A DNA stretch of 64,000 nt, from NCBI GenBank assembly GCA_025450315.1, contig JANWHQ010000159.1:8429-72428 (forward strand), in the 5' to 3' direction. Each line of letters opens with the position of its first letter. The first letter of the stretch is position 1. The notes beneath the pieces are model-generated. The model was given only the letters and a program-made list of their open reading frames with translations, was not told where the DNA came from and searched no databases. Source of the DNA: Caulobacteraceae bacterium (GTDB lineage: Bacteria; Pseudomonadota; Alphaproteobacteria; Caulobacterales; Caulobacteraceae). The translations under genes and the position numbers were made by a program. Below are positions 8,420 through 62,199 of the stretch, piece after piece.

Positions 8420-8443
8420 GGCTGGAAGCATGGAGGCCAGGAG

Positions 8444-43554: not shown

Positions 43555-44547
43555 CTAGCTCCCAAGCGTTCGCCTCAGCCAGAGATCGAACAGCGGGATC
43601 CATTCCTGGGTCGGCGTGCCCGGGAATCCGGTCCCGAAGGCGTGGCCGCCTTCCTGGAAGAAGTGGGCTTCCACCGGCCGGTGCGTGGCGCGCATGGCGG
43701 CCATCATCATCAGGCTGTTCTCGACAGGGACGGCGGGATCGTCGCAGGCATGGGCCAAAAAGACGGGGGGCGTCGCCGCGGTCACGTGCTGTTCGGGTGA
43801 CCGCGCGGCGACGAGCTGGTCCGAAGGCGAGCGTCCGAGCAGGTGATCGCGCGACCCTTCGTGGGTGTAGGGCCGGGTCATGGTGATCACCGGATAGATC
43901 AGGCCGGCCGCCGCAGGCCGGGCGTCGAGCCGATCGGCGCTGTCGGAGGGCGGGTAGAGGTCCTCGGCGAAGCCAGTGGCGAGCGATGCGGCCAGGTGGC
44001 CGCCCGCGGAGAAGCCCAACACCGAGAGGCGCGCCGGATCGATCCGGTGGCGCGCCGCCGAGGCGCGGATCACCCGCATGGCGCGCTGCGCGTCCTGCAG
44101 CGGCGCGTCAGGGCCGTGGGTCCAGCCCTCGGCGGGCAGCCGGTAGTTCAGCACGAAGACAGTGTAGCCGCGCGGGTTCATGCGCGCGGCGATGTCCACA
44201 CCCTCGTTCGCGACGGACACGAATTCATAGCCTCCGCCGGGAATGACCAACAGCCCCGAGCCGTTCGGCTTCCTCGCAGGGAAGATGTGCAGGGTCGGGT
44301 CGCGGGTATTGCGCAGGAAGACGGGCGGGAAGTCGGCAGGGAGCGGAGCCGGGCGGAATTCGCCGGCGCCGGGTGCGCCCTCTGGCCACAGACGCGCCAC
44401 CCGTGCTTTCGGCCAGGCGGCGGGCATGGCCTTCGCCGGGCGCGGAGGCTCGAGTTGCACGGGCGCAGCGGCGGCCGCCCCGGCCGCTGCGAGCGCTCCC
44501 CCTCCGATCAGTCCGAACAGGGACCTGCGATCGACGCCTGAGTTCAT
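43555..44547 (-). CDS. exported alpha/beta hydrolase (esterase, PGGG-type)
   Basis: Internal ATG at 44547 (330 aa). It has a Tat-like signal (MNSGVDRRSLFGLIGGGALAAAGAAAAA), the oxyanion region VIPGGGY and the nucleophile elbow GFSAGG. Confidence 0.8.
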   Translation of the reverse strand: MNSGVDRRSLFGLIGGGALAAAGAAAAAPVQLEPPRPAKAMPAAWPKARVARLWPEGAPGAGEFRPAPLPADFPPVFLRNTRDPTLHIFPARKPNGSGLLVIPGGGYEFVSVANEGVDIAARMNPRGYTVFVLNYRLPAEGWTHGPDAPLQDAQRAMRVIRASAARHRIDPARLSVLGFSAGGHLAASLATGFAEDLYPPSDSADRLDARPAAAGLIYPVITMTRPYTHEGSRDHLLGRSPSDQLVAARSPEQHVTAATPPVFLAHACDDPAVPVENSLMMMAAMRATHRPVEAHFFQEGGHAFGTGFPGTPTQEWIPLFDLWLRRTLGS

Positions 44548-44571
44548 GACTTTCCCCGGTAGCTTCGGCCT

Positions 44572-44583
44572 GAAAACGATTGC
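44572..44583. promoter_or_regulatory. degenerate LacI-type operator-like site GAAAACGATTGC
   Basis: Lies in the divergent gap between the esterase (ATG 44547) and the SGNH gene (44656). It shares the 14-mer AAACGATTGCATGA with the site at 58410. Confidence 0.4.
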
Positions 44584-44655
44584 ATGATGGCTTTGCCGCG
44601 TCCATAGCCGCGATCGAGTTCCGCATGGGCGTGGGCCCGAGGAAAGGGGAACGAG

Positions 44656-45492
44656 GTGTCTGGGGGGAACACGAGGATCTGGGCGTCGGTCGCGGCCGCC
44701 GCCCTCTGTCTTCTGGCGAAGACTGGGCTGGCGGACGCCTCTGGCGGCCCGACCGCGATCGTCGCCGATCCCTGCTCGGGTCTCGTGGACAAGCCCATGG
44801 ACTCCAGTCTGAGACCGATACTGGCTCCGGGGGCGAAGCTCACGCCGCCCCCGCCCGATCCGGCGCAGGCCAAGGCCATGGCTGAACAGAGGGCCAAGGA
44901 CTGGCCGAACCTCTGCCGTTACCGGGCGGCCAATGCGGCGATGAAGCACGCGCCAAGGGTCGTCTTCATGGGCGACTCGATCACCGAGCTCTGGAAGATC
45001 GCCGATCCGGGGTTCTTCTCGGACGATCGGGTGGATCGGGGCATCAGCGGTCAGACCAGTCCGCAGATGCTGCTCCGCTTCAGAGCAGACGTCGTCGACA
45101 TCAGGCCCCGGACCGTGCACATCCTGGCCGGCACCAACGACATCGCCGGCAACACCGGGCCGACGAGCGAGAAGGCGTTCCAGGACAATATCGAGTCGAT
45201 GGTCGAGCTCGCCAAGGCGCACCACATCCGGGTCGTGCTGGCCTCGATCCTGCCAATGGGCTCGATCGGCTGGCAGCCCCAATACCGGCCGGCCGAAGAA
45301 GTCCGTCGGTTGAACCGGTGGCTGCGCGAATACGCGGCTCGGAGCGGCGAGACCTACCTGGACTACTACAGCCGCCTGGCCACGGCGGATGGGTCGTTCA
45401 GGTCCGATCTTTCCAATGACGGGGTGCACCCGAACCTGGCGGGATACGCGATCATGCGCGAGATGGCCGACAGGGCCCTTGGCTTGAATTAG
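44656..45492 (+). CDS. exported SGNH/GDSL hydrolase
   Basis: 278-aa ORF (GTG start) with a signal peptide. All SGNH blocks are present: FMGDSITE, GISGQT, AGTNDI and DGVHPN. Confidence 0.85.
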   Translation: MSGGNTRIWASVAAAALCLLAKTGLADASGGPTAIVADPCSGLVDKPMDSSLRPILAPGAKLTPPPPDPAQAKAMAEQRAKDWPNLCRYRAANAAMKHAPRVVFMGDSITELWKIADPGFFSDDRVDRGISGQTSPQMLLRFRADVVDIRPRTVHILAGTNDIAGNTGPTSEKAFQDNIESMVELAKAHHIRVVLASILPMGSIGWQPQYRPAEEVRRLNRWLREYAARSGETYLDYYSRLATADGSFRSDLSNDGVHPNLAGYAIMREMADRALGLN

Positions 45493-45507
45493 CCGGGCGC
45501 GTCCCCG

Positions 45508-46770
45508 TCAGGAGATGGCGCCTGCAGCGGCCGCGGGTTCGTCGAGATAATCTTCGTCGTCGCGCTGGGCGAGACGGCCGCGGGTGGGGTTGGCGACAAC
45601 GTTCCAGACGCCAAGGGCGGCAAGCAGCCCGGCGAAGACGCTGGCCAGATAGAGGCTGTATTTCGCATCGCCCAGCGCGTCGCTCAGGGCGGCCATGGCC
45701 AGGGGGGCGAGGACCGCGCTCAGGCACGTGAAGAACAGCAGGAGGCCCGCGATTTCGCCGTGCTTGGGCTTTGCGAAGCTGCTGATGCCCTTGGAGTTGA
45801 TGGTCGGGTAGAGCACCGACATGAAGAGGCCGGATGCCGGGAGGGTCACCGCGGCCACTCCCCGGCCGCCCAGGCACCCGGCCAGGAAGCACAGGAAGAC
45901 CCCGGAGCTGCAGATGACCACCACCTGCGCCCAGGGAAGGCGCGCCAGCAGCCAGGCGCCGACAAATCGCCCGGCGGCGCGCAGCACGAAGAAGATCGAG
46001 ACGACATAAAGGGCGAACCAGGCGACGGGACCGCGGTAGCCCTGCAGGTAGGTGGGCGCCCAGACATAGACGGCCGCCTCCGTGGCTACGTAGAGCATGA
46101 GCGCCAGTGAAAACACCAAGGCGTAAGGATCGCGGAGCAGCGACAAGGTCTCGCTCAGACTCCGGGACCTGACCGCCTCTCGCCGAGCAGATTGCGGAAA
46201 ACGAGTGAAGACCGCGACGGCGATCAGGATCGCGCACAGCCCGCTGGCGATCACATAGAGCCACTTCCAATCGGCCCCCGACACGAGCAGGCGGGCCACG
46301 ATCGCGGGTCCGACGATCGCGCCGACGCCGAAGAAACCCTCCAGCATGTTCATGGTGGCCGAATGCTCGCGGGTGGAGCGGGAGATGTCGCCGATCATCG
46401 CCAGGGCGCCGGCCTTGAAGACGCCGATGCCCACGCCGGAAAGGAACAGAAGGAAGATGAAGACCACGAAGTCGCGGCCGACGGCGAAGAGGGCGCACGA
46501 GGCGGCGAACACCAGGAGTCCCGCGACGATGCTCCTTTTGCGGCCCCACCGGTCGGCGAGGAAGCCGAGGCCGAACGCGGCGATCGCGATGCCCGACATG
46601 GTCGCGTACTGGAACGCGCCGCCCGCCGTCATTCCGAGCGAGTACCGCTTGATGACCTGCGGAATGATCACGCCCACGGAGTCCGTGGTCATTGCGAACA
46701 TCGCGAACATGAAGAAGGCCAGCGCCTTCAGAAGGCCGATGCGGGGTGTTCCGTGGCCGGTCATGTGCAC
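45508..46770 (-). CDS. MFS transporter
   Basis: 420-aa ORF with about 12 TM segments and the MFS loop motif DRWGRKRS. Confidence 0.88.
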   Translation of the reverse strand: MHMTGHGTPRIGLLKALAFFMFAMFAMTTDSVGVIIPQVIKRYSLGMTAGGAFQYATMSGIAIAAFGLGFLADRWGRKRSIVAGLLVFAASCALFAVGRDFVVFIFLLFLSGVGIGVFKAGALAMIGDISRSTREHSATMNMLEGFFGVGAIVGPAIVARLLVSGADWKWLYVIASGLCAILIAVAVFTRFPQSARREAVRSRSLSETLSLLRDPYALVFSLALMLYVATEAAVYVWAPTYLQGYRGPVAWFALYVVSIFFVLRAAGRFVGAWLLARLPWAQVVVICSSGVFLCFLAGCLGGRGVAAVTLPASGLFMSVLYPTINSKGISSFAKPKHGEIAGLLLFFTCLSAVLAPLAMAALSDALGDAKYSLYLASVFAGLLAALGVWNVVANPTRGRLAQRDDEDYLDEPAAAAGAIS

Positions 46771-46863
46771 CGTTGCCGGCGCGCCGCCCGCATTCCTTTG
46801 GTCAAGCCGTCCTCCCGGGCTGTTTGCAGCCGCCGGGAAAGAGTATCCCGATCAGGCCGCTAC

Positions 46864-46875
46864 GCAACCGTTTGC
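46864..46875. promoter_or_regulatory. LacI-type operator-like site GCAACCGTTTGC (10/12 palindromic)
   Basis: Lies in the 122-bp gap upstream of the MFS gene (ATG 46770). Confidence 0.4.
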
Positions 46876-46892
46876 GGAGCGGTAGGCGCGCG

Positions 46893-47957
46893 TCAGACCT
46901 GTGCAGAGCGCAGCATCCGCCCCAGGGCGGCGTCGATGGCCCGGCTGAACCGGCGCGACACCGCCGCTGTCGGCACGAGGAACTGGAACGCGTGATAGGC
47001 GCCCGGAACCACCAGCAACTCGGTTGGGACGCCCGCGTCGAGCAGGCGTTGGGCGTAGGCGATGTCCTCCTGGACGAACAGGTCGAGGCCCCCGACGCCG
47101 ATGAAGGTCGGCGGCAGTCCGGCGAGTGTTGCGGCCCGGGCCGGGACGGCGCCCTTGGGGACCGCGGCGGAGCCGGCGGGCAAGCCGAGAAGCGCCGACC
47201 AGCCGAGCACGTTCAGCTCGGGCGTCCAGATGTAGGCGCCTTGATAGGGCGATGGCCGCCGAACGCTGCCGGTGCGGTCGTCGAGCATGGCGTAGACCAG
47301 CACCTGACCCGCCAGCGTGACCTCGCCCCGATCGCGGGCCGCCAGCGCGAGCGCCGCCGCGTGTCCCCCACCGGCGCTTTCGCCCATGACCGCGATGCGG
47401 CTGCGGTCCACGCCCAACCGTTCGGCGTGGTCGTGCAGCCAGAGGAGGCCCGCGTAATTGTCTTCCAGGGATCCTGGGAACCGGGTTTCGGGCGCGAGGC
47501 GGTAGTCGACGCTGACGATTAGGCAGCCCTGTTCGGCGGCGATCCGTTGCAGGTTCCGCATGTCGCTCTGGGGCGAACCGAGGATGTAGCCGCCGCCGTG
47601 CGTGTGGAGGATGGCCGGCCGGAGCTGGTCCGAAGGTCCCCCGCCGACGAGGAAGAGCCGCACCGGCGGCGCGTCCCCGCGACCCGGAATGAGCTCCTGC
47701 CGCACCGGAGGGGTCGCCAGGGGAGGGGGCGGCGCCTGGGTCGACGCTCGGCGGAAGGCCGGAATGTCCTGTTCCCGCAGCATGGGGATCCTGACCTTGT
47801 CAGGCTGTCGGACGGCGGACCGGAGTTCCGGATCGACGAGGTCCAGCGGGGTCTTTGGCGGCGAGCCGGGCGTGGCGCCCGCGCCGATCGCAGGAACGGC
47901 GGCGCCTAACGCAGTCAGCGCCAGCGTCAGTCCGCGCCGCGTAAGATCATGCGCCAT
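46893..47957 (-). CDS. exported alpha/beta hydrolase fold-3 esterase (HGGG type)
   Basis: Internal ATG at 47957 (354 aa). It has a Tat-like signal (MAHDLTRRGLTLALTALGAAVPA), HTHGGGY and GESAGG. Confidence 0.85.
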   Translation of the reverse strand: MAHDLTRRGLTLALTALGAAVPAIGAGATPGSPPKTPLDLVDPELRSAVRQPDKVRIPMLREQDIPAFRRASTQAPPPPLATPPVRQELIPGRGDAPPVRLFLVGGGPSDQLRPAILHTHGGGYILGSPQSDMRNLQRIAAEQGCLIVSVDYRLAPETRFPGSLEDNYAGLLWLHDHAERLGVDRSRIAVMGESAGGGHAAALALAARDRGEVTLAGQVLVYAMLDDRTGSVRRPSPYQGAYIWTPELNVLGWSALLGLPAGSAAVPKGAVPARAATLAGLPPTFIGVGGLDLFVQEDIAYAQRLLDAGVPTELLVVPGAYHAFQFLVPTAAVSRRFSRAIDAALGRMLRSAQV

Positions 47958-48006
47958 GATTGTCCTCCCGCGCCGGACCGCGTTCACGGCCGAGCCAGAA
48001 GCGTGC

Positions 48007-48018
48007 GCAAACGTTTGC
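48007..48018. promoter_or_regulatory. LacI-type operator, perfect palindrome GCAAACGTTTGC
   Basis: 12-bp perfect palindrome with a central CG. It sits 50 bp upstream of the esterase ATG (47957) and 28 bp after the LacI gene stop. Confidence 0.6.
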
Positions 48019-48045
48019 AAACGTCAAGGCGCAATGGCGCCGGAC

Positions 48046-49122
48046 CTAGCCGCCGCTGGGCGCGTGGCCGGGGACCGGCGGAGTGGAGTCCCGCTCGATC
48101 AGGGCGATGGGCAGCGTGGCCGACGGCGTCTCCTCGCCCGCCATGCGGCGGAACAGGAACTCCACGACGGTGGCGGCGCCGCGCTTGAGGTCCTGGCGTA
48201 TGGTGGTGAGCCGCGGGTGGGAGTGCTGCGCCAGCTCCAGATCGTCGAAACCCACCACCGCGACCTGGTCCGGCACGGACACGCCGCTGGCCTCGAGCGC
48301 CCTCAGCGCCGAGAGCGCGATCACGTCGGAGGCGGCGAAGATGGCGTCGAACTCGATCCCGCGCGAGATCAGGTCCTGCACCGCGGCCAGGGCCGTGTCG
48401 CCGGTGAAGTGGGCAGGCAGGATCAGGTCGGGATCGACCGACAGCCCCGCGCGCTCGAGGCCGCTGCGGTACCCCTGAAGCCGCATCTGGATTTCGGGCA
48501 AGGGCGCCGCGCCGAGGAATACGATTCGTCTGCGCCCTGTTTCGATCAGCCGATCCACCGCCGCCCGGCCGCCGCCGACATTGTCCGAACCGACCGAGCA
48601 GTACACCTGCTCGGGCAGGTGGGCGCCCCAGACGACGAGCGGCAGGAATGCGCGGGCCGCCGCATTGAGCTCCTCATGCTGGTCGCTCTGGCCGACGATG
48701 ATATAGCCGTCGGCTTTCTGGGACTGGACGTGGCGGACCAGCCAACCGGGCTTTGGCGACGGGACCCGGGAAAGCAGGACGTCGTGATTCCGGAGCGAGA
48801 CCTCGTCGGCGATGTGGCCGAACAGCTGCAGGAAGAACGGATCGGAGATCAGCTGGTCCGCCTCGTGTCCGAGCGGGATCGCCACCCCGATGGTCCGGGT
48901 CCGATTGGACCGGAGCCGTTGCGCCGCCTGGTTGATCACATAGCCGCTCTCCGCGGCGATCCGCTGGATCTGCTGGCGCGTCTTGATCGGGATCGCCGGG
49001 CTTTCGGCCAGGGCGCGGGACACGGTCGAGGTGGAGACGCCGGCCAGACGGGCGATATCGGCCATCTTCAACGGGGCCTGGCCGGGCCTCTTCAACGCCC
49101 TCAATTGGTTCGCGCGCGCCAT
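48046..49122 (-). CDS. LacI family transcriptional regulator
   Basis: It has an N-terminal HTH (KMADIARLAGVSTSTVSRAL) and a periplasmic-binding-protein-like sugar-binding core. The start is taken at ATG 49122 (49140 is also possible). Confidence 0.9.
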   Translation of the reverse strand: MARANQLRALKRPGQAPLKMADIARLAGVSTSTVSRALAESPAIPIKTRQQIQRIAAESGYVINQAAQRLRSNRTRTIGVAIPLGHEADQLISDPFFLQLFGHIADEVSLRNHDVLLSRVPSPKPGWLVRHVQSQKADGYIIVGQSDQHEELNAAARAFLPLVVWGAHLPEQVYCSVGSDNVGGGRAAVDRLIETGRRRIVFLGAAPLPEIQMRLQGYRSGLERAGLSVDPDLILPAHFTGDTALAAVQDLISRGIEFDAIFAASDVIALSALRALEASGVSVPDQVAVVGFDDLELAQHSHPRLTTIRQDLKRGAATVVEFLFRRMAGEETPSATLPIALIERDSTPPVPGHAPSGG

Positions 49123-49207
49123 GCGGCCTAGATAACCCAATGTGGCGGCCTGCGCGACGGTTCGGCTCCGGGCTCGCGCTCGCAGGAGATCAGCCGCTCC
49201 CGGCCAG

Positions 49208-50923
49208 CTATGCGGGCGCGAGGCTGGCCCGTTCGGGCCCGTCCGGGTCGAATTCGAGCCGCACTTCGTCGTCGAAGATCATGGTGGGGACCTTCTCCCG
49301 GGAACAGGGCGCCCAGGCCGGCATCGCCGCATGGTTCGGGTCGCCGGTGCGGGCGAACTGGATCCAGGCGTCGGAGACGATCGAACTCAGAGCGCGAGCC
49401 CGCGACCCGCCGCCTGTCATGTGATCGCAGACATCTGTGTTGGCGAAGACGAAGGGGATCTCGGCGCAGTGAAACGCGCGTGGCCGGCCGTCGAAGATGG
49501 GCGTCTGCCAGGCGAACCAGTAAAGATAGGCCGGCGCCCGGTTCAGGGCCGCCTTCGCCGCGGCCTGGCGGATGGCTGCCTGCCGCACCGGCGCGCTGGC
49601 GATGCGGGACCAGACGTCGAAGGGCTTGGCGCCGGGCATGCGCGCGCGGAACGCTGCGACGACGGCGGCCCCGCGGCCGGGATATGTCGCCTCGGTCCTG
49701 GCGAGGAGCTCCGGCTCGGTCATGAGCTCGTAGTCCGGATGGTTCATGGCCGTTGTGAACTCGTTCATGGTCGTGCCGATGATCATCGGCACGTCGGCGG
49801 AGAGTTCGGGCGCGCGCGGGTTGAACGGCGCTTCTGGCAGGACGTGTCCATCGGCCACCGGCGCAAAGCTCGCGCGAGAGGCCATGCTCCGGACATCTGG
49901 GACGCCCCCCGCCGGGCCGTTGGCCTTCAACAGCGCCGCCACGCTCGCTCGTTGGAGGTCGGCGTACGGCAGGTCGTGAAGCCGATCGAGGCTCGCGGAG
50001 TTGAGACCCAGCTCGGTCAGAACCAGGTCCGCCAGCCTTTGCGACTTGTCAGGCGTGTTGGTGAAGGCGAACGACCCGCTCTCCACCACCGCCCTGTGGA
50101 AGAGGCCCTTGGCCGACGGCATGCCCATCAGCGTGCCGACCTTGGCCCCGCCGCCCGACTGGCCGAAGATCAGGACCCTTCCAGGGTCGCCGCCAAACCC
50201 GGCGATGTTGTCGCGGACCCATTCCAGCGCGGCGACGATGTCGAGCATCCCGACGTTGCCCGAGGGGGCGTAGGCCGCGCCGTATTTCGACAGGTCGAGG
50301 AAGCCCAGGACGTTGAGCCGGTGGTTCAGGGTCACCACCACCACGTCGCCGCGCCGGGCGAGATTATCTCCATCGAAAGCCGGAATGTCGTTGCCGGAGC
50401 CCGCCTCGAAGCCGCCGCCGTGCAGCCAGACCATGACCGGGCGGCGCCCTGCGTCATTGATCCCCGGCGTCCAGACGTTCACCCGCAGGCAGTCTTCGCC
50501 TTCGACGCTGTCGTTCCACTGGAAGATGAAGGCTTCCTCGTCGTTCAGCCGTCCCGTGCCCTTGTCCTGGGGCGCGACGTAGCCGTACTGGCGCGAGCTT
50601 CGGATCCCCGTCCAAGGCCTCGGCGTCTTCGGCGGCAGAAAGCGGTTGGGACCGGCGGTGGTGTCGCCATAGGGGATTCCCTTGAAGGCGAAGACCCCTT
50701 TGCGGACATAGCCGGCGACCTTGCCGGACTGGGTGTCCACGATCGCGACGTCCGACCGGGCGACGACAGCGTCCTCACCCGTGCGATCCCGGTCTAGATG
50801 CGGTGCGGGCTGGGCCGCCAGATCCGAGGCGGCCCCGGCGGCGACCATGAGGCTTGCGCCCTTCAGCACGGTCCGGCGGGCCAGCCGCCTGGCCGAGGTC
50901 TTGTCATCTGCCTGATGCGTCAT
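49208..50923 (-). CDS. exported type-B carboxylesterase/lipase family protein
   Basis: 571-aa ORF with a Tat-like signal (SARRLARRTVLKGASLMVAAGAA), HGGGF and the nucleophile elbow GQSGGG. Confidence 0.9.
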   Translation of the reverse strand: MTHQADDKTSARRLARRTVLKGASLMVAAGAASDLAAQPAPHLDRDRTGEDAVVARSDVAIVDTQSGKVAGYVRKGVFAFKGIPYGDTTAGPNRFLPPKTPRPWTGIRSSRQYGYVAPQDKGTGRLNDEEAFIFQWNDSVEGEDCLRVNVWTPGINDAGRRPVMVWLHGGGFEAGSGNDIPAFDGDNLARRGDVVVVTLNHRLNVLGFLDLSKYGAAYAPSGNVGMLDIVAALEWVRDNIAGFGGDPGRVLIFGQSGGGAKVGTLMGMPSAKGLFHRAVVESGSFAFTNTPDKSQRLADLVLTELGLNSASLDRLHDLPYADLQRASVAALLKANGPAGGVPDVRSMASRASFAPVADGHVLPEAPFNPRAPELSADVPMIIGTTMNEFTTAMNHPDYELMTEPELLARTEATYPGRGAAVVAAFRARMPGAKPFDVWSRIASAPVRQAAIRQAAAKAALNRAPAYLYWFAWQTPIFDGRPRAFHCAEIPFVFANTDVCDHMTGGGSRARALSSIVSDAWIQFARTGDPNHAAMPAWAPCSREKVPTMIFDDEVRLEFDPDGPERASLAPA

Positions 50924-50929
50924 CTGTGC

Positions 50930-52063
50930 CTAGCGTCCCAGATGACGATCGAAGAACCTGACCATGACGTCATAGGCGTCCCGCGATTCCGGCACGTCCG
51001 GGTCGTAGAAGAAGCCGTGGAACATGCCGTCCCAGACGTGCAGCTCGGCGTCCACGCCGAGCCTCGACAGCCGGCTGTGGGTGTAGACGGCCGAGCTCAT
51101 CTCGAAACCCCTCGTCGCGGTGATGACCAGGGTCGGCGGGAACCGGCGGAGGACATCATCCGATGCGGCCGGGGCGACCTCAGGATCGTTCGGATCCGTC
51201 CCCGCGAAATAGCCAAGCGGCGGAACGCCGCCCGCTTTCGCCGGCGACGGGGCGGGCGGCGGCGGCGCTGGCCGCGCTTCACCGAGCGGAGCGGCCGTGT
51301 AGCTCGCATCGCCTCCGAACCCGAGGTCCGCCAGGGTCGCGCCGGCGCAGAAGATTCCGACCGCGCCGGGCCTCGGCAGGCCGTGCTTCTGGAACCACGC
51401 AACCGACATGCCGGTAAGCATGCCGCCGGCGGAACAGCCGTAGATACCGATGTTCGCTGCGGGATAGTGTTTCAGAAGATGGCGATAGACCGCCGCAACG
51501 TCCTCGCTGGCGGCCGGAAACCGGTATTTCGGGCCTTCCCGATAGTCGAGGCTGATCACCTCGATACGGGCGAGCGACGCGACCGGCATGGACTCCAGCT
51601 CGGCGCACCCGGGGAAGCATCCCGAGAACCCACCGCCATGCAGGTTGATCAGGACGCGCCGCCGGTTGCGCGGGGCGACGCCCGACCGCGGCGTAAAGAC
51701 ATAGGCATGCACGCCCGCAATCGTCGTGTCCTGCTTCGCGACCGGGAACAGCGTCTTCTGCCGGGCCAGATAGCCCTGCATGAAGACGGGGACGCCGTCC
51801 TTCTGAGCCACGAGATCAGGGCGCTGCATGTCTTTCAGGTGCTGGGCGAGATAGGCCTTGCCCTCGGGGCTGAGGAAGCTCGAGGGCGGCACCGTCATGG
51901 CCGGGACGTGCACCGTGCCGTCGTCGTCGACCTGGACGGCGGGGCTCCGCTCCGCCGGCTGGGCATGGACCATTCCCGGCGCTGCGCAGGCCAACGTCAC
52001 GGCGATCGCCGTGACCGCTCGGGCGAACCCCGCCAGGAAGGCAGATCTGGAATTCCACAACAT
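50930..52063 (-). CDS. exported alpha/beta hydrolase fold-3 esterase
   Basis: 377-aa ORF with a signal peptide ending in MVHAQ, plus NLHGGGF and GCSAGG. It starts 6 nt upstream of the next gene in the same orientation. Confidence 0.85.
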   Translation of the reverse strand: MLWNSRSAFLAGFARAVTAIAVTLACAAPGMVHAQPAERSPAVQVDDDGTVHVPAMTVPPSSFLSPEGKAYLAQHLKDMQRPDLVAQKDGVPVFMQGYLARQKTLFPVAKQDTTIAGVHAYVFTPRSGVAPRNRRRVLINLHGGGFSGCFPGCAELESMPVASLARIEVISLDYREGPKYRFPAASEDVAAVYRHLLKHYPAANIGIYGCSAGGMLTGMSVAWFQKHGLPRPGAVGIFCAGATLADLGFGGDASYTAAPLGEARPAPPPPAPSPAKAGGVPPLGYFAGTDPNDPEVAPAASDDVLRRFPPTLVITATRGFEMSSAVYTHSRLSRLGVDAELHVWDGMFHGFFYDPDVPESRDAYDVMVRFFDRHLGR

Positions 52064-52153
52064 CGCCGGGACCTTCCTGGAAACGCCGCGCCGGGGCGCG
52101 AGGGGGGAAAAGAGGAGGGGCGGCCGAATGACGGCCGCTTCAGGTAGGAGAGC

Positions 52154-54367
52154 CTAGAAATTGTAGGACGCGCGCACGCCGAACTGCCGCGGCGGCCCCA
52201 GGAACTCGTCGTTGATGAACTGGCCGCTGACGTAGGTCTTGTTGGCGAGGTTGGTGACGTAGCCCGTCAAACTGTAACGGCCCTGGGCGTAGGTCAGATG
52301 GGCGTTCCAGAGCCCGTGGCTGGCGAGGAAGTCGGTGGAGTTCTCCAGGAGCGTGGTCCACTGGGAGCCCTGGTACGAGTAATCGATCCGCGGCGTCAGG
52401 GTGGCGCCATGTCCGAGGTCGAAGTTGTATTCAGCGCCGATATTGTAGGTCCAGCGTGGCGCATAGGTATTCGAGCGGCCGGCGACCGAGACGAAATAGG
52501 GCCCATAGTTGAAACAGACCGGCGGGTTTGATGGGACGCCCGCCGCGCATTGGGGCCCGAGGTTGTTCCCTCCGTTCGGGAGCAGGCGGTTGTTGGTCAG
52601 CGTGACCGCCCCGATGCTCGAGTCCACCCACGCGGCGCCGAAGTCCACGGACAGCCCCCCGAGCCGGCCCTGGCCCTGCAGTTCCACCCCCTTGATGATC
52701 GCGCCCTTGGTGTTGCCGGTGCCGGACGTGCCCGTGGCCGGATCGATGATGCCGTCGACCTGGTAGTTGCTGTAATTGTTGTAGAAGCCGTCGAGCTGAA
52801 GTCTCAGCCTGCGGTCGAAGAGCTGGGTCTTCCACCCCGCCTCGTAATCCCAGACCGTCTCCGCGAGGAAGTTTGTGGCGCCATTCGAGCCGCCAGCCTT
52901 GGCTCCCTTCGACGCGAAGACGTACAGGAAGTTCTCGTCGTTGAGCGTGTAGTTGAGGGCGGCCTTGCCGGTCCAGTTGTCGCCGGCATAGTGGCCCGCG
53001 TTGGGGATCGTCACGAACGGCGGCAGGCCGGGGAAACCGATCTTGATCTGGCCCCCATTGTCCACGACGTCATGGGTGTAGCGCCCACCCACTTCGAGCT
53101 GGAGGGCCTTGGTCAGGTCGTACTGCACGCGGCCGAACAGGGCCTCGGAAGACTTCTCGGTGAAGATGGTGACGAAGGTGTGCGGCTGGCCTGCCGTGTC
53201 GAGGTCGATGCCGACCTTGATGCTGTCGTGCCAGTAGAAGCCGCCGGCGATCCACTTCAGCGGTCCATCGTCCGGCGAGAGGATGTTGAATTCCTGAGTG
53301 ATCGGCCGCTCCGAAACGTCTTGCGCTTCGTACTGGGCCGGCGGCCCGTTCGAGGCGTCGGAATCGTAGAGGTCGACTACCTTGTTGTACTGGAACCCCG
53401 TAACAGAACGTAAGGTGACGCCGTTCTTCAGCTGGTACTTGAGCTCCAAGCTGTTACGGATCGCATGTTCGTTGTTCTTCTCGGCCTGGTCGAAGTTCAG
53501 GGTCCGCAGGTCGATCGGCGCGAACTGCGCGTAGGGGGTGCCGGGGATGGGGCGGTAGTCGTACCCTCCGGTGTCCTTCTGGCCGAGACCCACCTTCAGC
53601 AGCACGCTGAGATTATCGATCGGCTCCCAGAGCATGCTCAGCCGAAGGTCCTGCTCGTTCAGCTTCCCCGGCGTCTCGAAGGAGCCCCCGGTCGGGGTCG
53701 TCTGTCCCCCGATGTCGTGGAAGAAGCTGTCGCGGCGCTCGACGTTGTAGGCGACCCTGAACGCGAGCTTGTCATTGACGGGGAGATTGACCGCGCCTCG
53801 CGAGCCGATGTCCGAATAGTTGCCGCCCCAGACCTCGACATTGCCGTCGACCCCCGTGAACGTTGGGCTCCTGGAGGTGATGAACACCGCACCGCCCGTC
53901 GAACTGGCTCCGGCGAAGGTCCCCTGTGGTCCGCGGTAGACCTCCACTTCGCCGATATCGAAGAAGCTGTTGGTGGTGACGATCGGAGGCTGCAGCAGCC
54001 AGTCCAGGTAGATCGGCACCCCCGGAACTACCGCCGGATTGCCGCTGGACAGGCCGATGCCGCGGATGTTGACGTTCTGGGTCAGGGCCGCGCTGGTGAT
54101 GGAAAGCGACGGCGTCGCCTGCTGCAGGTCCGAGACTTGCTGGATCTCCTTCTTCTCGAGATCCGCGCCGCTGAGGGCGGAGACGGCGGCCGGCACGGTC
54201 TGGATGTTTTCCGTGGTCCGGGAGGCGGTGACGACCACCTCGCCGACCGTCGCTGTCCTTTTGGCGTCGTCGGCGCTTTGCGCATGCGCCACTGACCCTA
54301 CAGCCGAGAGCGTGATGGCGAGGGCAAGCCCCGACGGGGCGCCCAAATGGTGCAGTTTGCGAGTCAC
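52154..54367 (-). CDS. TonB-dependent receptor
   Basis: 737-aa ORF with a signal peptide, a TonB-box/plug region (EVVVTASRTTENIQTVPAAVSAL) and a C-terminal beta-barrel ending in the aromatic YNF. Confidence 0.92.
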   Translation of the reverse strand: MTRKLHHLGAPSGLALAITLSAVGSVAHAQSADDAKRTATVGEVVVTASRTTENIQTVPAAVSALSGADLEKKEIQQVSDLQQATPSLSITSAALTQNVNIRGIGLSSGNPAVVPGVPIYLDWLLQPPIVTTNSFFDIGEVEVYRGPQGTFAGASSTGGAVFITSRSPTFTGVDGNVEVWGGNYSDIGSRGAVNLPVNDKLAFRVAYNVERRDSFFHDIGGQTTPTGGSFETPGKLNEQDLRLSMLWEPIDNLSVLLKVGLGQKDTGGYDYRPIPGTPYAQFAPIDLRTLNFDQAEKNNEHAIRNSLELKYQLKNGVTLRSVTGFQYNKVVDLYDSDASNGPPAQYEAQDVSERPITQEFNILSPDDGPLKWIAGGFYWHDSIKVGIDLDTAGQPHTFVTIFTEKSSEALFGRVQYDLTKALQLEVGGRYTHDVVDNGGQIKIGFPGLPPFVTIPNAGHYAGDNWTGKAALNYTLNDENFLYVFASKGAKAGGSNGATNFLAETVWDYEAGWKTQLFDRRLRLQLDGFYNNYSNYQVDGIIDPATGTSGTGNTKGAIIKGVELQGQGRLGGLSVDFGAAWVDSSIGAVTLTNNRLLPNGGNNLGPQCAAGVPSNPPVCFNYGPYFVSVAGRSNTYAPRWTYNIGAEYNFDLGHGATLTPRIDYSYQGSQWTTLLENSTDFLASHGLWNAHLTYAQGRYSLTGYVTNLANKTYVSGQFINDEFLGPPRQFGVRASYNF

Positions 54368-54466
54368 TCGTCCCTCCCGCGTTTCCGGACGCAGTGGGGG
54401 CTCTGCCTTCGCGCGAGCCGTCCCCCCTTGGCTGCGGCCTCCCTGAGGGGCCGTGTACCGTGGTAC

Positions 54467-54478
54467 GCAATCGATTGC
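54467..54478. promoter_or_regulatory. LacI-type operator, perfect palindrome GCAATCGATTGC
   Basis: 12-bp perfect palindrome located 100 bp upstream of the TonB-dependent receptor ATG, in the divergent gap. Confidence 0.6.
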
Positions 54479-54577
54479 AAAAGATTTCTGCTTGGATATG
54501 CCTTAGGTGAAGCGGCCCGCGATGTTGAACTGGATCTACCGTCGGCGTATCCGCCGAGCCGGCCGGCGTCTTGTTCT

Positions 54578-54589
54578 GCAATCAATTGC
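54578..54589. promoter_or_regulatory. LacI-type operator-like site GCAATCAATTGC
   Basis: Same half-sites as 54467 but with a central CA instead of CG. It lies 30 bp upstream of the amylosucrase ATG. Confidence 0.5.
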
Positions 54590-54618
54590 GCAGCTCACCT
54601 TAGGGAGATAGACGGTCG

Positions 54619-56472
54619 ATGAGCGGTGCAGTGAAATTGGGCCAAGGACAAATGCACGCCGCCCCGGACCTGGCGCAGCTCGAGCTCCCCGACCGGATGG
54701 ATCGCTTATGGCCCGTCGCCGAGGCGTGCCTGCGGCGGGTCTACGGATCGCGACCCGACTGCGAGTTCTGGCTGCAGGGCATCGCACGGGTGGTCAAGGC
54801 GCTCGGGGAGGCCCGGCCGCGGGAACTGGCCCTGCGGGATCAGTCCCGTCCCGAATGGTGGCGGACGGGGAGCGTGGTCGGCTATTCGGCCTATGTCGAT
54901 CGCTTCGCGGGCGATCTGCGTGGCCTGCGGAGCCGCCTCCCGTACCTCAAGGAACTGGGCGTCCGCTATCTTCACCTCCTGCCGCTGCTCAAGTCGCGCG
55001 AGGGCGACAACGACGGGGGGTTCGCGGTCTCGGACTTCGGCTCGGTCGAGCCCCGACTGGGGACCAACGCAGACCTGCAGGACCTGGCGAGAGCGGCGCA
55101 CGAGATGGACCTCAGCCTCGTCCTTGACCTCGTCTGCAACCACACCGCCGACGATCACGCCTGGGCGAAGGCCGCGCGATCGGGCGACGAGGAATACAGG
55201 GACTACTACATCGTCCTGCCGGATCAGGGCGTGGTGGCGGACTACGAGAAGCGGCTGATCGACGTCTTTCCGGACGTCGCTCCCGGCAACTTCACCTATT
55301 CCAAGGAGATGGGCGGCTGGGTCTGGACCACCTTCTACCCATTCCAGTGGGACCTGAACTACGCCAATCCGGCCGTGTTCTGCGAGATGACGGCGGCCAT
55401 GCTGCGGTTGGCCAACATGGGGGTGGACGGCCTGCGCCTGGATTCCGCGCCTTTCATCTGGAAGCGGCGAGGGACAGCCTGCCGCAACCTGCCCGAGGCG
55501 CACTGGCTCCTGGCGACCTGGCGCGCACTGCTGACCATCGCCGCGCCCGGGGTGGTGCTCAAGGCCGAGGCGATCGAGCGCCTCGAGGATGTGAAGTCCT
55601 ATTTTGGGGAGACCGTCACCGAGCCGGAGTGTCACCTCGCCTACAACAACGGCGCCATGACCGCGCTCTGGGCGTCCCTGGCGCTCGGCCGTGCGGAGCC
55701 CATGCGGCGACTCGTCGATGCGGCCAGCCGGAAGCCTGCCTGGGGGACGTGGGTGAACTATGTGCGCTGCCACGACGACATCATCTGGTCTGCGCTGAGC
55801 CCGTGCCTGAGCCCTGAAGACCAGGCCCGCTGCTCCTCGTTCTTCGCCGGCCAGGTGAGCGGCTCGTTCGCCGCCGGCTCCGCCTTCCAGTCGGTCGCCG
55901 GCGCCGCCGCCAGCACCAACGGGATGGCCGCCGCGCTGGTCGGCATCGGTGACGATGATCCGGGCTCGGACGCCGCCAGGAGACTGGCGTTGTTGTACGC
56001 CGTGAGCTTCGCCTTGGATGGGATCCCGATCATCTGGATGGGCGACGAGATCGCCTTGGGAGACGCCGCGGCGAACCAGGACGCAGGCGCCGCCGGGTCC
56101 GACGGCCGATGGCTGCAACGGCCCCGCATGGATTGGCGGCGCGCAGACCTGCGAGGCGACGGCGGCGCGTTGCCCGGCCATGTGTTCCAGCAGTTTGCGC
56201 TCTATGCCCGGATTCGCGCGGCCGAGGCGGCCTTCGACGCCCAGCACGTGGCCAGGACAACGAAGGCGGACCATGTCGCCGTCCTGTGTTTCGTGCGAGG
56301 CGAGGGGGCCAGCTCGATCCAGTGCGCGGCGAACTTCTCGAACGCGAGATGCTCCACCAGATTGACGCTCGATGGCGGCAGCTGGCTGGACCTCCTGTCG
56401 CAGGACGCGGGAAGGGCGCGGGAGGTTGAGCTCGGCCCGTACCAGGTCCGTTGGCTCGTCAGCCGCCCGTGA
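54619..56472 (+). CDS. amylosucrase / sucrose hydrolase (GH13)
   Basis: 617-aa ORF without a signal peptide. GH13 blocks are DLVCNHTA and GLRLDSAPFIWKRRGTACRNLPEAH (amylosucrase-type), plus VRCHDD. Confidence 0.88.
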   Translation: MSGAVKLGQGQMHAAPDLAQLELPDRMDRLWPVAEACLRRVYGSRPDCEFWLQGIARVVKALGEARPRELALRDQSRPEWWRTGSVVGYSAYVDRFAGDLRGLRSRLPYLKELGVRYLHLLPLLKSREGDNDGGFAVSDFGSVEPRLGTNADLQDLARAAHEMDLSLVLDLVCNHTADDHAWAKAARSGDEEYRDYYIVLPDQGVVADYEKRLIDVFPDVAPGNFTYSKEMGGWVWTTFYPFQWDLNYANPAVFCEMTAAMLRLANMGVDGLRLDSAPFIWKRRGTACRNLPEAHWLLATWRALLTIAAPGVVLKAEAIERLEDVKSYFGETVTEPECHLAYNNGAMTALWASLALGRAEPMRRLVDAASRKPAWGTWVNYVRCHDDIIWSALSPCLSPEDQARCSSFFAGQVSGSFAAGSAFQSVAGAAASTNGMAAALVGIGDDDPGSDAARRLALLYAVSFALDGIPIIWMGDEIALGDAAANQDAGAAGSDGRWLQRPRMDWRRADLRGDGGALPGHVFQQFALYARIRAAEAAFDAQHVARTTKADHVAVLCFVRGEGASSIQCAANFSNARCSTRLTLDGGSWLDLLSQDAGRAREVELGPYQVRWLVSRP

Positions 56473-56483
56473 GCGGCCGATGC

Positions 56484-56832
56484 GCAGCCGTCGAGCTCGA
56501 CGGCGCCCGGGTCGCCGTCGATGCGGTATGGGAGCTCGCCGGCGCCTATCCGGGCCCAGCTCTGCGCGGTGCTCGCCCTGATCGTGTCGCCCCGCAGGAT
56601 CGTGCTGGGCGGCGGCGTCGGCCGCCGGCCCGGGGTTCTCCGGGCGGCTCGGCGCGGGCTGGCGACCCAACTTTCAGGCTATCTGACCCGCCCTCAGCCC
56701 GATGAACTCGACAGCTACCTGGTCGAACCCGGCTTCGGATCGGACTCGGGGCTCTTCGGCGCGCTCGCGTTGGCCCAAGGTCAAGGCGAACAGGAGAAGC
56801 TTTCGGCGCGCGCCTTGTCGCCGCCCTCGTAG
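56484..56832 (+). pseudogene. remnant of a ROK-family sugar kinase (fructokinase-like): C-terminal part only, frameshifted
   Basis: One frame reads ...VELDGARVAVDAVWELAGAY. A second frame continues ...IRAQLCAVLALIVSPRRIVLGGGV...LSGYL...YLVEPGFGSDSGLFGALALA. No N-terminal ATP-binding half is present, and the 3' end overlaps the converging tannase gene. Confidence 0.5.
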
Positions 56833-58376
56833 CGGGCGACCTGGGGGTAGGGGCAAAGCGGCCGGCTCTGTCCGGGGAACGATGCGCCGGTGGCCACGAG
56901 CCGCTCGGGGGCGTGGTCGTCCTCGACCCATGACATCAGCGCGCTCAGGGCGTCGAAGCGATCGGTGGCCGGACCGCCCTGGCAGTGGTTCATGCCCGGC
57001 ACGAGGAACAGGCGCGCCCAGTCCTGGGGCGGGCCCGCGTCCTTGGCCAGCTCATCGTACCAGCCGATGATGTCGTTGGCCGAAAACACGGGATCGCTCA
57101 GGCCCTGGTAGATCAGAAGGCGCCCGCCGTGCTGGACGAAGCTGCTCAGGAAGGTCGACGTAGGGTCGTTGATCGCGCCGGTCTGGGCAGTCAGATCCGC
57201 GGCCTTGTCGAAGTCGAAGGTCAGGGGATCGATGGCGGCGTCCTTGGGGGTCGCGAAGTACCGGCGCAGAGCGTCCAGCCCCATGGTCTGGTTGATGCCA
57301 TTGGCGGCGCCGGAGGGGGCCGAGCCCATCTTCCAGATCCGCCAGCCCATGTCGCCCACGCCGGCGTCGTAGGGCCAGCTCGCATAGATCGGGCGGCCTT
57401 TCGAGTCGCGCGCGCCAGCGAAGATCCGCTCGATCGCCCCGACCTTGGCCGCGCTCAGGCACCCGGTGGTCGAGCGGGCCTTGCAGGTCAGGACCCGGGG
57501 GTTGAAGCGGCAGGCGCGGAAATCGTTGATCATGCCGTCCTTCAAGCCATCGAGGCCGTCGCAAGCCTCGAGCGTCGCCTTGGCCAGGAGCTTCAGGTCG
57601 TCCGGGGTCAGGGCCTGGCTCACGATGGGCCGTCCCTGGGCATCGCGAGGCGCGATCTTGGCGAGCTGGGTGGTGTCCCAGAGCTCGCCGACCGCGGCGC
57701 GGCTGAGTCGGAATCCCGGGTCGCCGGCGATGATCCCGTCGAAGTCGAGGGGATATCGTTCGGCGGCCATCATCCCTTGGCGGCCGCCATTGGAACAGCC
57801 CATGAAATAGGAACGCTTGGGACCCTGGCCATAGAAGCGGGCGATGATCGCCTTGGCTTCGGCGGTCACCTTGCCCAACGCCTGATAGGCATAGTCCAGC
57901 CGCGCCTGCTGGTCGTCGGCGAAGCTCGCGTCGCCCCCTTGGTGCCCGGCGTCGGTGGTGACCACGGCGAAGCCCCTGGCCAGGGCGGGCTCGCCCCCGC
58001 TCCCAGCGCCCACGGCCGGGGTCACGACGCCGTCCAGGCCGCCCCCGCCCTGAAACAGGAAGCGGCCGTTCCACTTGGTCGGCAGGCGCAGCTCGAAGCC
58101 GATGCCATAGCTCTTGCCGCCGACGCCGGTTCGGGGGTCGAGCATGCCGCGGACGACGCAATGCTCGGGAAGCTGCACTGCCGGGGCGCCCGGCGGACCG
58201 AAAGCCGCCTTCATCGGGCCCGCCGGTGTCAACTCCGCCTTCTCGACGCGAAGGGCAGGGGACGCCAGGTCGGTCAGCGCGCGGCAGGCCTCTGCCGTAC
58301 CGTCCTGGGCATGGGCCAGCGACGCGCCGGCGAGCGATGCGGTCGCCGCGATGACCGCGGCCAGAAGCGATTTCAA
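56781..58376 (-). CDS. exported tannase/feruloyl esterase family hydrolase (paralog 1)
   Basis: 531-aa ORF with a signal peptide (MKSLLAAVIAATASLAGASLAHAQ). It has GCSNGGRQ (Cys-Ser) and PGMNHCQGG (His-Cys), the signature of this family. Confidence 0.9.
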   Translation of the reverse strand: MKSLLAAVIAATASLAGASLAHAQDGTAEACRALTDLASPALRVEKAELTPAGPMKAAFGPPGAPAVQLPEHCVVRGMLDPRTGVGGKSYGIGFELRLPTKWNGRFLFQGGGGLDGVVTPAVGAGSGGEPALARGFAVVTTDAGHQGGDASFADDQQARLDYAYQALGKVTAEAKAIIARFYGQGPKRSYFMGCSNGGRQGMMAAERYPLDFDGIIAGDPGFRLSRAAVGELWDTTQLAKIAPRDAQGRPIVSQALTPDDLKLLAKATLEACDGLDGLKDGMINDFRACRFNPRVLTCKARSTTGCLSAAKVGAIERIFAGARDSKGRPIYASWPYDAGVGDMGWRIWKMGSAPSGAANGINQTMGLDALRRYFATPKDAAIDPLTFDFDKAADLTAQTGAINDPTSTFLSSFVQHGGRLLIYQGLSDPVFSANDIIGWYDELAKDAGPPQDWARLFLVPGMNHCQGGPATDRFDALSALMSWVEDDHAPERLVATGASFPGQSRPLCPYPQVARYEGGDKARAESFSCSP

Positions 58377-58409
58377 AGCAGCTTCCCCCGAAGACTCTGG
58401 TTTTCAGGG

Positions 58410-58421
58410 ACAAACGATTGC
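58410..58421. promoter_or_regulatory. degenerate LacI-type operator-like site ACAAACGATTGC
   Basis: Lies in the divergent gap between tannase paralog 1 (ATG 58376) and the hydrolase gene (58483). It shares AAACGATTGCATGA with the site at 44572. Confidence 0.4.
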
Positions 58422-58482
58422 ATGAAGATTTAGCGGAGGTCCATGGGCGTGTACCCTGGGCCAGGAGCCTGGGGAGGCGAAC

Positions 58483-59478
58483 ATGATCGGACGTGTGATC
58501 CTTGGGGCCGCCGCGGGCGGCTGCCTGCTGGCCACGGCCTTGACCTGCGGGACGAGTCGGGCCCAGCCGGCGCCGCCGTCGGCGGACTTCCGGGCGGCCA
58601 TGGCGGCCTACGACAAGCTGCCCGACACGCCGGGCACGGGGCCGTTTCCGGCGATGAAGGCGGAGGATCCCGCGTTCCCGGGCCATGTGGTCTACCGCCC
58701 CGCGGACCTGGACCGGCTCGGCGGCCGCAAGCTGCCCATCGTGCTCTGGGGCAACGGCGGCTGCACCGACGATGCGGCGGCCGAACGGCTGTTCCTGGAG
58801 GAGATCGCCTCGCACGGCTACCTGCTGATCGCGCCGGGCGCCATCCTCTCCGGCCCGGGCGCGCCGCCCGCCCGTCCGGCCGCACCCCCGCCACCGCCGC
58901 CGCCCGCGGGGGCGCCGCGGCAGCCGCCGAAGCTCAGCGTCCGCACCACGACCGCCCAGATGGGGCAGGGGCTCGAACAGGCGCTCGCCGCCAACCGGGC
59001 GCCGGGCCCCTGGCACGACCGGCTGGACGAGAGCCGCGTCGCCGTCTCGGGCTATAGCTGCGGCGGCTTGCAGGCGCTGGCGCTGGCGGGCGATCCGCGG
59101 GTCAAGGCGGTGCTGATCCTCCACTCGGGCGTGTTCAATTCGGGAAGCCCGATCCAGGGCCTCCAGGTCGACAAGTCGGTGCTGAACACCCTGCACACGC
59201 CGGTGATCTACCTGCTGGGCGGGAAGACCGACATCGCCTGGCCGAACGGGACGGACGACTTCGCCCGCATCGACAAGGTCCCGGCGCTGCTGGCCAGCCA
59301 TGACGTCGGCCATGGCGGCACCTTCATGCAGCCCAACGGCGGGGCGGAGGCGCAGGTCGCGCGCGAATGGCTGGACTGGCAGCTGATGGGCGACGCCAAC
59401 GCCGGCAAGGCGTTCGTGGGCCCCGACTGCGGGCTCTGCCGCGATCCGCAGTGGACCGTGCAGCGCAAGGGCTTCTAG
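58483..59478 (+). CDS. exported alpha/beta hydrolase with an internal poly-Pro insertion
   Basis: 331-aa ORF with a signal peptide, the nucleophile elbow GYSCGG and a C-terminal His region (SHDVGHGG). It carries an unusual insert, PGAPPARPAAPPPPPPPAGAPRQPP. Confidence 0.75.
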   Translation: MIGRVILGAAAGGCLLATALTCGTSRAQPAPPSADFRAAMAAYDKLPDTPGTGPFPAMKAEDPAFPGHVVYRPADLDRLGGRKLPIVLWGNGGCTDDAAAERLFLEEIASHGYLLIAPGAILSGPGAPPARPAAPPPPPPPAGAPRQPPKLSVRTTTAQMGQGLEQALAANRAPGPWHDRLDESRVAVSGYSCGGLQALALAGDPRVKAVLILHSGVFNSGSPIQGLQVDKSVLNTLHTPVIYLLGGKTDIAWPNGTDDFARIDKVPALLASHDVGHGGTFMQPNGGAEAQVAREWLDWQLMGDANAGKAFVGPDCGLCRDPQWTVQRKGF

Positions 59479-59482
59479 GCCG

Positions 59483-61102: not shown

Positions 61103-61133
61103 GGCGCGCCCGGGCGAATTGAAGGAGAGCCCC

Positions 61134-62180: not shown

Positions 62181-62199
62181 AATTCGCTGCACTATTTTC
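62181..62199 (+). promoter_or_regulatory. 19-bp motif AATTCGCTGCACTATTTTC, copy 1
   Basis: Identical 19-mer at 63627..63645. It lies 52 bp upstream of the MFS ORF start. Confidence 0.45.

Follow-up and report, generated by a model that had tools for sequence, protein, structure and literature searches.

Six palindromes as probable operators of a SucR/SuxR-type repressor in an esterase-rich sucrose gene cluster of a Caulobacteraceae bacterium

We describe here a gene cluster of a Caulobacteraceae bacterium (GenBank assembly GCA_025450315.1, contig JANWHQ010000159.1), contained in a window of 64,000 nucleotides (positions 8,429 to 72,428 of the forward strand), in which a TonB-dependent receptor, an MFS permease and a GH13 enzyme resembling those of sucrose loci stand among genes for exported esterases. 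Six short palindromes in the intergenic gaps of this cluster are very probably operators of its own LacI-family repressor (48046-49122, minus strand; coordinates are those of the window unless a contig or locus is named), which, judged from its sequence and from the loci of its relatives, would belong to the SucR/SuxR type. In a genome with two genes for LacI-type DNA-binding domains, the motif is restricted to this locus, and it is conserved beside the regulator orthologue in related bacteria, which supports the single regulon proposed in an earlier reading of the same DNA (hereafter, the sequence-only reading).

Results

The motif is confined to one locus

The window lies on an 80-kb contig (C159) of an assembly of 3,812,969 bp (3.81 Mb) with 70% GC. 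By the relatives that a protein search recovered, the genome belongs to an uncultured genus of Caulobacteraceae close to Brevundimonas. The six 12-mers named in the sequence-only reading, here s1 to s6, are each found exactly at the coordinate given there, all of them in non-coding gaps: GAAAACGATTGC (44572), GCAACCGTTTGC (46864), GCAAACGTTTGC (48007), GCAATCGATTGC (54467), GCAATCAATTGC (54578) and ACAAACGATTGC (58410). The full motif is a 16-bp palindrome with the consensus ATGCAAWCGWTTGCAT.

Several counts set these sites apart from the rest of the genome. GCAANCGNTTGC has three copies in the whole assembly, all within 7.6 kb of the locus, and the generic core AANCGNTT is present 14 times in the window, against 5.1 expected, a number reached by none of 100 shuffles. 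When each site is left out in turn from a symmetrised 16-bp matrix, the omitted one is always recovered at a rank of 2-17 out of 3.8 million positions. An independent matrix, built from 35 sites of seven other genomes and none from this one (consensus atGCAATCGATTGCat), places s4, s3, s1, s5, s2 and s6 at ranks 1, 2, 3, 4, 6 and 8, respectively, of the same 3.8 million positions, s6 being the weakest (15.2 bits); only three other positions of the genome reach at least 15 bits (about 0.8 per Mb). The sites are thus enriched at the locus, as the sequence-only reading had supposed, and not spread at similar density through the genome.

The intergenic DNA is relatively AT-rich in this 70% GC genome, and the palindromes might be taken for chance AT-rich words, or for copies of a small repeat, in such DNA. 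At the density of the motif in the genome, however, about 0.01 sites would be expected in these 14 kb, where six are observed, and all six fall in the non-coding part, roughly 8.5% of the stretch; in related genomes, the sites remain invariant while their surroundings diverge (see below). A repeat element as their origin is ruled out because the flanks (40 bp beyond the 16-bp core) share only background identity between sites (0.16-0.39). Genome counts, leave-one-out ranks, alignments and flank comparison together effectively refute this explanation, to which we assign a negligible probability.

Weaker matches to the motif on contigs C45, C117, C8 and C107 lie in genes or in unrelated contexts and are not regarded as regulon members. 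The best match of the genome outside the six sites, ATGCAATCGATTACAG, is found at C159:79663-79678 (L001:15664-15679), 7.2 kb past the end of the window, across the start codon (ATG) of a second gene for a TonB-dependent receptor, whose product (MQSITAGRR...) contains a plug domain. A paralogous receptor at C59:40965 carries the related ATGCAATCGAATTCGT and has much of the N-terminal coding sequence in common, so that ATGCAATCGATTACAG may be a coding coincidence; it stands as a possible seventh site that we have not counted. The contigs C159 and C59 both break off within these paralogous receptor genes, and C59 contains a copy of the final 40 bp of C159.

The sites lie at the promoter regions of the cluster

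Measured to the likely start codons, the sites stand 24 to 99 bp upstream of genes of the cluster, in agreement with the 25-100 bp proposed before, and the gene calls of the sequence-only reading are confirmed by Pfam. Two sites share the gap between the receptor and the GH13 gene: s4 (ACGCAATCGATTGCAA, 54465-54480), a perfect palindrome 99 bp from the receptor start, and s5 (CTGCAATCAATTGCGC, 54576-54591), with CA instead of CG at its centre and 29 bp from the ATG of the SuxB-like GH13 gene. The receptor heads a string of genes, receptor-Est3b-COest-lacI-Est3a-MFS, which contains two further sites. One of them, s3 (GCGCAAACGTTTGCAA, 48005-48020), is also a perfect 12-bp palindrome, placed 25 bp past the lacI stop codon and 49 bp from the Est3a ATG, and it is abutted on the minus strand by the hexamer TTGACG (48019-48026), which is -35-like and fits the Caulobacter-type consensus. 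The other, s2 (ACGCAACCGTTTGCGG, 46862-46877), is internal to the co-directional string, past the stop codon of Est3a and 99 bp from the start of MFS. As Est3a and the MFS gene have their own operators (s3 and s2) downstream of lacI on the same strand, internal promoters or roadblocks are implied.

The two remaining sites occupy divergent gaps. The 108-bp gap between EstX and the GDSL gene holds s1 (CTGAAAACGATTGCAT, 44570-44585), about 24-25 bp from the EstX ATG and 72 bp from the GDSL start; the proximity of the EstX ATG (about 25 bp) identifies this gap as a divergent promoter region. The target list of the sequence-only reading was therefore incomplete, since the esterase EstX (43555-44547, minus strand), absent from it, would be served by the same site. 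Finally, s6 (GGACAAACGATTGCAT, 58408-58423) separates tannase-1, whose start is 33 bp away, from the DLH-like/tannase-2 operon, which starts at 61 bp.

The generic LacI/GalR shape around a central CG, previously ascribed to all the sites, holds for five of the six and fails for s5. The 14-mer AAACGATTGCATGA, shared by two degenerate sites and taken earlier as a sign that these are real, indeed occurs nowhere else in the genome, but it consists mostly of the consensus flank ..GCAT, and its extra GA is absent from the orthologous sites. A scan for Escherichia coli-type promoters and terminators (44300-58700) gave a single promoter-like match, which lies within a gene and not at any of the operators, the E. 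coli model being uninformative for a high-GC alphaproteobacterium.

The sites are conserved with the regulator in related genomes

In three genomes of the same genus, G001, G002 and G005, the regulator is 90%, 92% and 70% identical to ours, respectively, and high-scoring sites are found at the matching gaps: two ahead of the receptor, one just past the lacI stop, one between Est3a and MFS, one beside the GDSL gene and one in the gap that the DLH-like gene shares with its divergent neighbour. Counterparts of s1 adjoin the GDSL gene in G001, G004 and G005; the gap of s2 has retained its site in G001 (L019:11894) and G002 (L020:13872), and s6 has counterparts in these two genomes as well (L019:1928 and L020:1817). 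The gene order of G001 is rearranged, with the receptor facing the DLH-like gene and the GH13 gene facing lacI, and the sites have moved with the promoters. Sites likewise keep to their genes through changes of order in G002, G005, Brevundimonas and Sphingomonas oligophenolica.

Alignments of the intergenic DNA, covering the s4/s5 gap in four genomes and the s3 gap in three, show the operators as invariant islands in diverged surroundings (67-69% mean column identity). In the case of s3, the site together with the adjoining GTCAAGGC is invariant in the three genomes, and so is the presence of the -35-like hexamer. The unusual centre of s5 is kept in three of the four genomes (here, G002 and G005), and is CG in G001. 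The distance between the centres of s4 and s5 is 110-111 bp in the four genomes (here 111 bp; 54467-54589), despite the diverged sequence in between. This conserved spacing may reflect helical phasing, and, at about 10.5 helical turns, it would suit cooperative binding; since the regulator has no LacI-like C-terminal tetramerisation tail (its match to LacI stops 11 residues short of its own C-terminus), such cooperativity is a matter of speculation. In G001, the stretch from receptor to GH13 (L019:4520-7590) retains only fragments of Est3b (a partial Abhydrolase_3 domain) and COest (a COesterase remnant), from which we conclude that the esterase content of the locus turns over quickly.

The association of motif and regulator extends further. 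In a 14-mer search that covered 41 related genomes, seven of the ten matches within the genus lie beside the regulator orthologue, none was found in the sole genus member lacking the orthologue (a genome that is 54% complete), and 11 of the 14 other genomes of the family without a regulator match have none either. Esterase-rich versions of the locus recur in Brevundimonas and in Sphingomonas oligophenolica, the regulators of such loci in other genera being 76-83% identical to ours. In the Brevundimonas genomes, four or five sites accompany the genes for the regulator, the GH13 enzyme, the MFS permease and the esterases; S. oligophenolica (regulator about 81% identical) has two receptors and an MFS permease together with six esterases and a tannase, with sites in five of five promoter gaps of the stretch examined and one more before the adjacent GH13 gene.

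The same motif is also found where esterases do not dominate. In about 20 alphaproteobacterial loci, collected with the GH13 protein, it precedes the receptor-SuxB genes, mostly as paired sites of 20-26 bits; the pattern-based search with this protein recovered no Xanthomonas loci. These plain sucrose loci belong to Caulobacter, Asticcacaulis, Sphingomonas, Novosphingobium, Nitrospirillum, Niveispirillum and Hyphomonadaceae, as well as to genome G026, and the LacI-type regulator near them is 41-59% identical to ours (57% in Caulobacter sp.). Lone esterases with a site of their own occur within such loci, for example a tannase in Niveispirillum irakense and a hormone-sensitive lipase (HSL)-family esterase in Sphingomonas and Novosphingobium. 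A different regulon content with the same motif is seen in Niveispirillum cyanobacteriorum (L073:12761, 18892 and 19024), where the regulator is 60% identical to ours and the sites stand before a TonB-dependent receptor and a transporter of the SSF family, adjacent to a gene for a RoxA-like cytochrome c.

The LacI-family regulator

The regulator (358 aa; Pfam LacI, Peripla_BP_3 and Peripla_BP_1) has an N-terminal LacI-type helix-turn-helix (HTH) domain (PF00356, 47.1 bits, cut-off 27; ..GVSTSTVSRAL..) and a periplasmic-binding-protein-like effector and dimerisation core (PF13377, E 1.2e-32, and PF00532), and it matches solved LacI-family repressors over its full length. The HTH is followed by the hinge YVINQAAQRL, with its conserved Leu, which, on an alignment by eye, we take to parallel the YIPNRVAQQL of LacI. 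The core of s3, GCAAACGTTTGC, is presumably that of an idealised E. coli PurR box. The recognition helix of PurR likewise reads S-T-T-T-V-S, and its regulon and effector are unrelated; the resemblance only shows a half-site and recognition-helix solution common in the family. Orthologues of the regulator are 70-92% identical where the locus is rich in esterases and 41-59% identical where it is a plain sucrose locus; among the gammaproteobacterial regulators found, the nearest reach no more than about 37-42% identity.

The claim that this is the sole LacI-family gene of the region holds, and a domain scan of the whole genome adds just one more LacI-HTH gene, on contig C106. Given that the ..AA.CG.TT.. 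form is generic among LacI-family motifs, the palindromes might be bound by the C106 protein or by a non-LacI factor instead of the local regulator. The recognition helix of the C106 protein differs, however (VSMKTVSRV, compared with VSTSTVSRA here), the motif occurs in this genome solely around the local regulator, and elsewhere it co-occurs with the orthologues of that regulator, all of which makes another binding protein very improbable.

How the regulator would itself be controlled is suggested by its position. The 85-bp gap upstream of lacI contains no operator, and lacI is for that reason most simply read as co-transcribed with the receptor, Est3b and COest, and autoregulated through s4.

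Genes of the cluster

In the sucrose-like core, the TonB-dependent outer-membrane receptor (737 aa; 52154-54367, minus strand) has Plug and TonB_dep_Rec_b-barrel domains and a signal peptide. The MFS permease (45508-46764, minus strand) is of a sugar type, FucP/TsgA-like, and 50-60% identical to the permeases of plain suc loci. The GH13 enzyme (54619-56472, plus strand) is SuxB-like, a sucrose hydrolase or amylosucrase, and is cytoplasmic, as neither it nor the regulator carries a signal peptide. It had been called an amylosucrase; the GH13 assignment stands, and its nearest kin are the Xanthomonas SuxB/SUH sucrose hydrolases (2wpg, 9r8i and 3cze; E 1e-148 to 1e-151), with the Neisseria amylosucrase 1g5a (1e-119) in second place. 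This gene is followed by the remnant of a ROK-family, fructokinase-like kinase (56473-56832, plus strand), reduced to its C-terminal third (Pfam ROK positions 223-292); in G002, an intact ROK gene of 294 aa overlaps the GH13 stop (L020:3454-4338).

Nine hydrolases of about six families are placed under these operators, and all carry Sec or Tat signal peptides. EstX is an exported esterase like BD-FAE and the pectin acetylesterase PaeX, with a Tat signal; the GDSL/SGNH esterase (44656-45492, plus strand) has a Pfam match and a signal peptide. Est3a (46893-47957, minus strand; Tat-type signal) is an exported HSL-family esterase recognised by Pfam, and Est3b (50930-52063, minus strand) an exported esterase of the same family, GCSAG subfamily-like. 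COest (49208-50923, minus strand; Pfam, Tat-type signal) is an exported type-B carboxylesterase of the COesterase family. Tannase-1 (56781-58376, minus strand; Pfam Tannase, signal peptide) is an exported member of the tannase/feruloyl-esterase family with Ideonella MHETase as its best solved relative (E about 1e-111 to 1e-114). On the other side of s6 stand a DLH/cutinase-like hydrolase (58483-59478, plus strand), whose cutinase/PETase-like matches are weak, the tannase-family hydrolase tannase-2 (59483-61102, plus strand), a paralogue of tannase-1, and a TauD/TfdA dioxygenase (61119-62054, plus strand). The families are complementary, comprising the acetyl-esterase-like EstX and GDSL proteins, the HSL-family Est3a and Est3b, a type-B carboxylesterase, the cutinase/PETase-like DLH protein and two tannase/feruloyl-esterase proteins. 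None of the esterases gives a match specific for sugar esters, their best solved relatives being generic carboxylesterases, MHETase/feruloyl esterases and GDSL proteins.

The gaps of 4 bp (DLH-tannase-2) and 16 bp (tannase-2-TauD) indicate that these three genes probably form one operon (58483-62054), with TauD as its last gene. An identical 19-mer, AATTCGCTGCACTATTTTC, is present at 62181-62199, before a second MFS gene, and at 63627-63645, before a second TauD gene, and it probably marks a different regulator; the larger gap and this 19-mer before the next gene suggest that the operon under s6 extends no further than the first TauD gene. The succession of a cutinase/PETase-like gene and, 4 bp later, a tannase-family gene recalls the PETase/MHETase duo, and this pairing may point to a natural aromatic-ester substrate.

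Discussion

A number of sucrose systems provide the frame in which the present cluster can be understood. In the case of Caulobacter crescentus, which belongs to the same bacterial family, the LacI-type SucR represses Psuc-sucABCD and sucrose relieves the repression, as summarised in PMC11897816 (citing Modrak et al. 2018) and PMC11909599. There, too, the gene for a LacI-type repressor adjoins those for a TonB-dependent receptor of sucrose, a GH13 enzyme, an MFS permease and a kinase, and in a Caulobacter sp. locus of this architecture, the one whose regulator is 57% identical to ours, two sites of the same motif lie ahead of the receptor. The differences concern the extent of the regulon: six operators at five promoter regions here, compared with one promoter in C. 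crescentus; nine exported esterases here; lacI within the receptor operon here, whereas in C. crescentus it lies upstream under its own constitutive promoter; and a kinase gene that has decayed here.

The same logic is found in Xanthomonas campestris and X. oryzae, in which the sucrose-relieved SuxR, of the LacI family, represses suxR, suxC and suxAB (PMC1790865; bioRxiv 10.1101/2025.06.02.657373), thus covering a TonB-dependent receptor, an MFS permease and a GH13 enzyme, the latter represented by the SuxB/SUH structures nearest to ours. The sux genes are those of another class, Gammaproteobacteria, and no esterases are reported among them. Sucrose regulons have been catalogued in 11 non-orthologous LacI groups, SuxR included (Ravcheev et al. 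2014, PMC4052901; RegPrecise), and the local regulons of that survey share with the present one the even 16-bp palindrome with a central CG, a regulator adjoining its targets and paired sites within a gap, although their pair spacings peak at 13, 22 and 32 bp, in contrast to the 110-111 bp found here. Because the architecture of our locus (regulator, TonB-dependent receptor, MFS permease and GH13 enzyme, a set also present in related genomes) matches that of suc and sux, and the motif is common to plain suc/sux loci across Alphaproteobacteria, we regard the regulator-operator pair, as far as sequence comparison can tell, as one of a known kind, SucR/SuxR-like, rather than an orphan.

Some observations weigh against the reading of the palindromes as operators of a SucR/SuxR-type repressor. 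No operator lies directly upstream of lacI or Est3b, and the operon structure that would bring them under s4 is assumed; s5 departs from the central CG, and s6 scores just 15 bits by the other-genome matrix. The kinship to the characterised SucR and SuxR rests on the 57% identity to the suc-type regulator of Caulobacter sp. Moreover, the fructokinase-like gene expected of sucrose catabolism is decayed here, a kinase elsewhere in the genome not having been searched for.

From what is known of the family, a plausible sequence of events can be proposed. A repressor dimer would sit on each 16-bp palindrome, its two HTH heads reading the GCAA half-sites, while the hinge helices (YVINQAAQRL) would pry open the central CG. 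The bound repressor would then block initiation or elongation of transcription, as the position of s3 against the -35-like hexamer and that of s5, 29 bp before the GH13 ATG, would allow. Repression through s1 would affect EstX and the GDSL gene; through s2, the MFS permease; through s3, Est3a; through s4, the receptor-Est3b-COest-lacI string; through s5, the SuxB-like hydrolase; and through s6, tannase-1 together with the DLH-like/tannase-2/TauD operon. A sugar that has been imported would lower the affinity for the operators and release the repressor; the analogy with SucR and SuxR makes sucrose the likeliest candidate, a close derivative being the alternative. As for the flow of substrate, an esterified sugar may be taken up through the receptor and deacylated in the periplasm by the nine exported esterases, the freed sugar being imported by the MFS permease and split in the cytoplasm by the GH13 enzyme.

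What the esterases do in such a regulon admits two explanations. One is that the whole is a dedicated system for natural sucrose esters, such as acetylated or feruloylated phenylpropanoid sucrose esters and plant acylsucroses, in which a SucR-type repressor has recruited esterase promoters through the gain of operators. We advance this tentatively, and somewhat doubt it; a sucrose-ester substrate as such is plausible but unproven, and the evidence for it is circumstantial. The other is that the palindromes are real operators of a plain sucrose regulon, alongside which esterases have been inserted that share no substrate with the sucrose genes and form no sugar-ester pathway, a possibility to which we give a little less than an even chance. 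It draws support from a motif and a regulator type that are those of plain suc/sux loci, from esterases that lack a specific sugar-ester match, and from a locus in flux, with the ROK kinase decayed here and Est3b and COest fragmentary in G001. Against it, the esterase promoters have gained operators of their own (s1, s3 and s6) that are conserved across genomes, the set of esterases, GH13 enzyme and receptor recurs in Caulobacteraceae and Sphingomonadaceae, and even the plain loci of N. irakense, Sphingomonas and Novosphingobium contain lone esterases provided with their own site. In our search of the literature, we found no LacI-family local regulon with an esterase-dominated content, and nothing relevant on TonB-dependent uptake of sucrose esters or on bacterial degradation of acylsugars.

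All together, a control system that is in itself ordinary appears to govern an unusual content, a sucrose core with nine exported esterases. The results extend SucR/SuxR-type control of sucrose genes to an uncultured genus of Caulobacteraceae, with a well-supported 16-bp motif for the group. From a practical point of view, the motif and its repressor could act as a tight inducible switch in high-GC Alphaproteobacteria, like Psuc in Caulobacter. The shared operators outweigh mere gene adjacency as evidence that esterases and sucrose genes serve one substrate, they provide a rational approach to the substrates that MHETase-like and cutinase-like enzymes act on in nature, and with them the scavenging of plant sucrose esters by bacteria becomes directly testable. 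If the dedicated sucrose-ester system proposed above is real, it would represent a new class of substrate for the TonB-receptor carbohydrate loci of Caulobacteraceae and Sphingomonadaceae.

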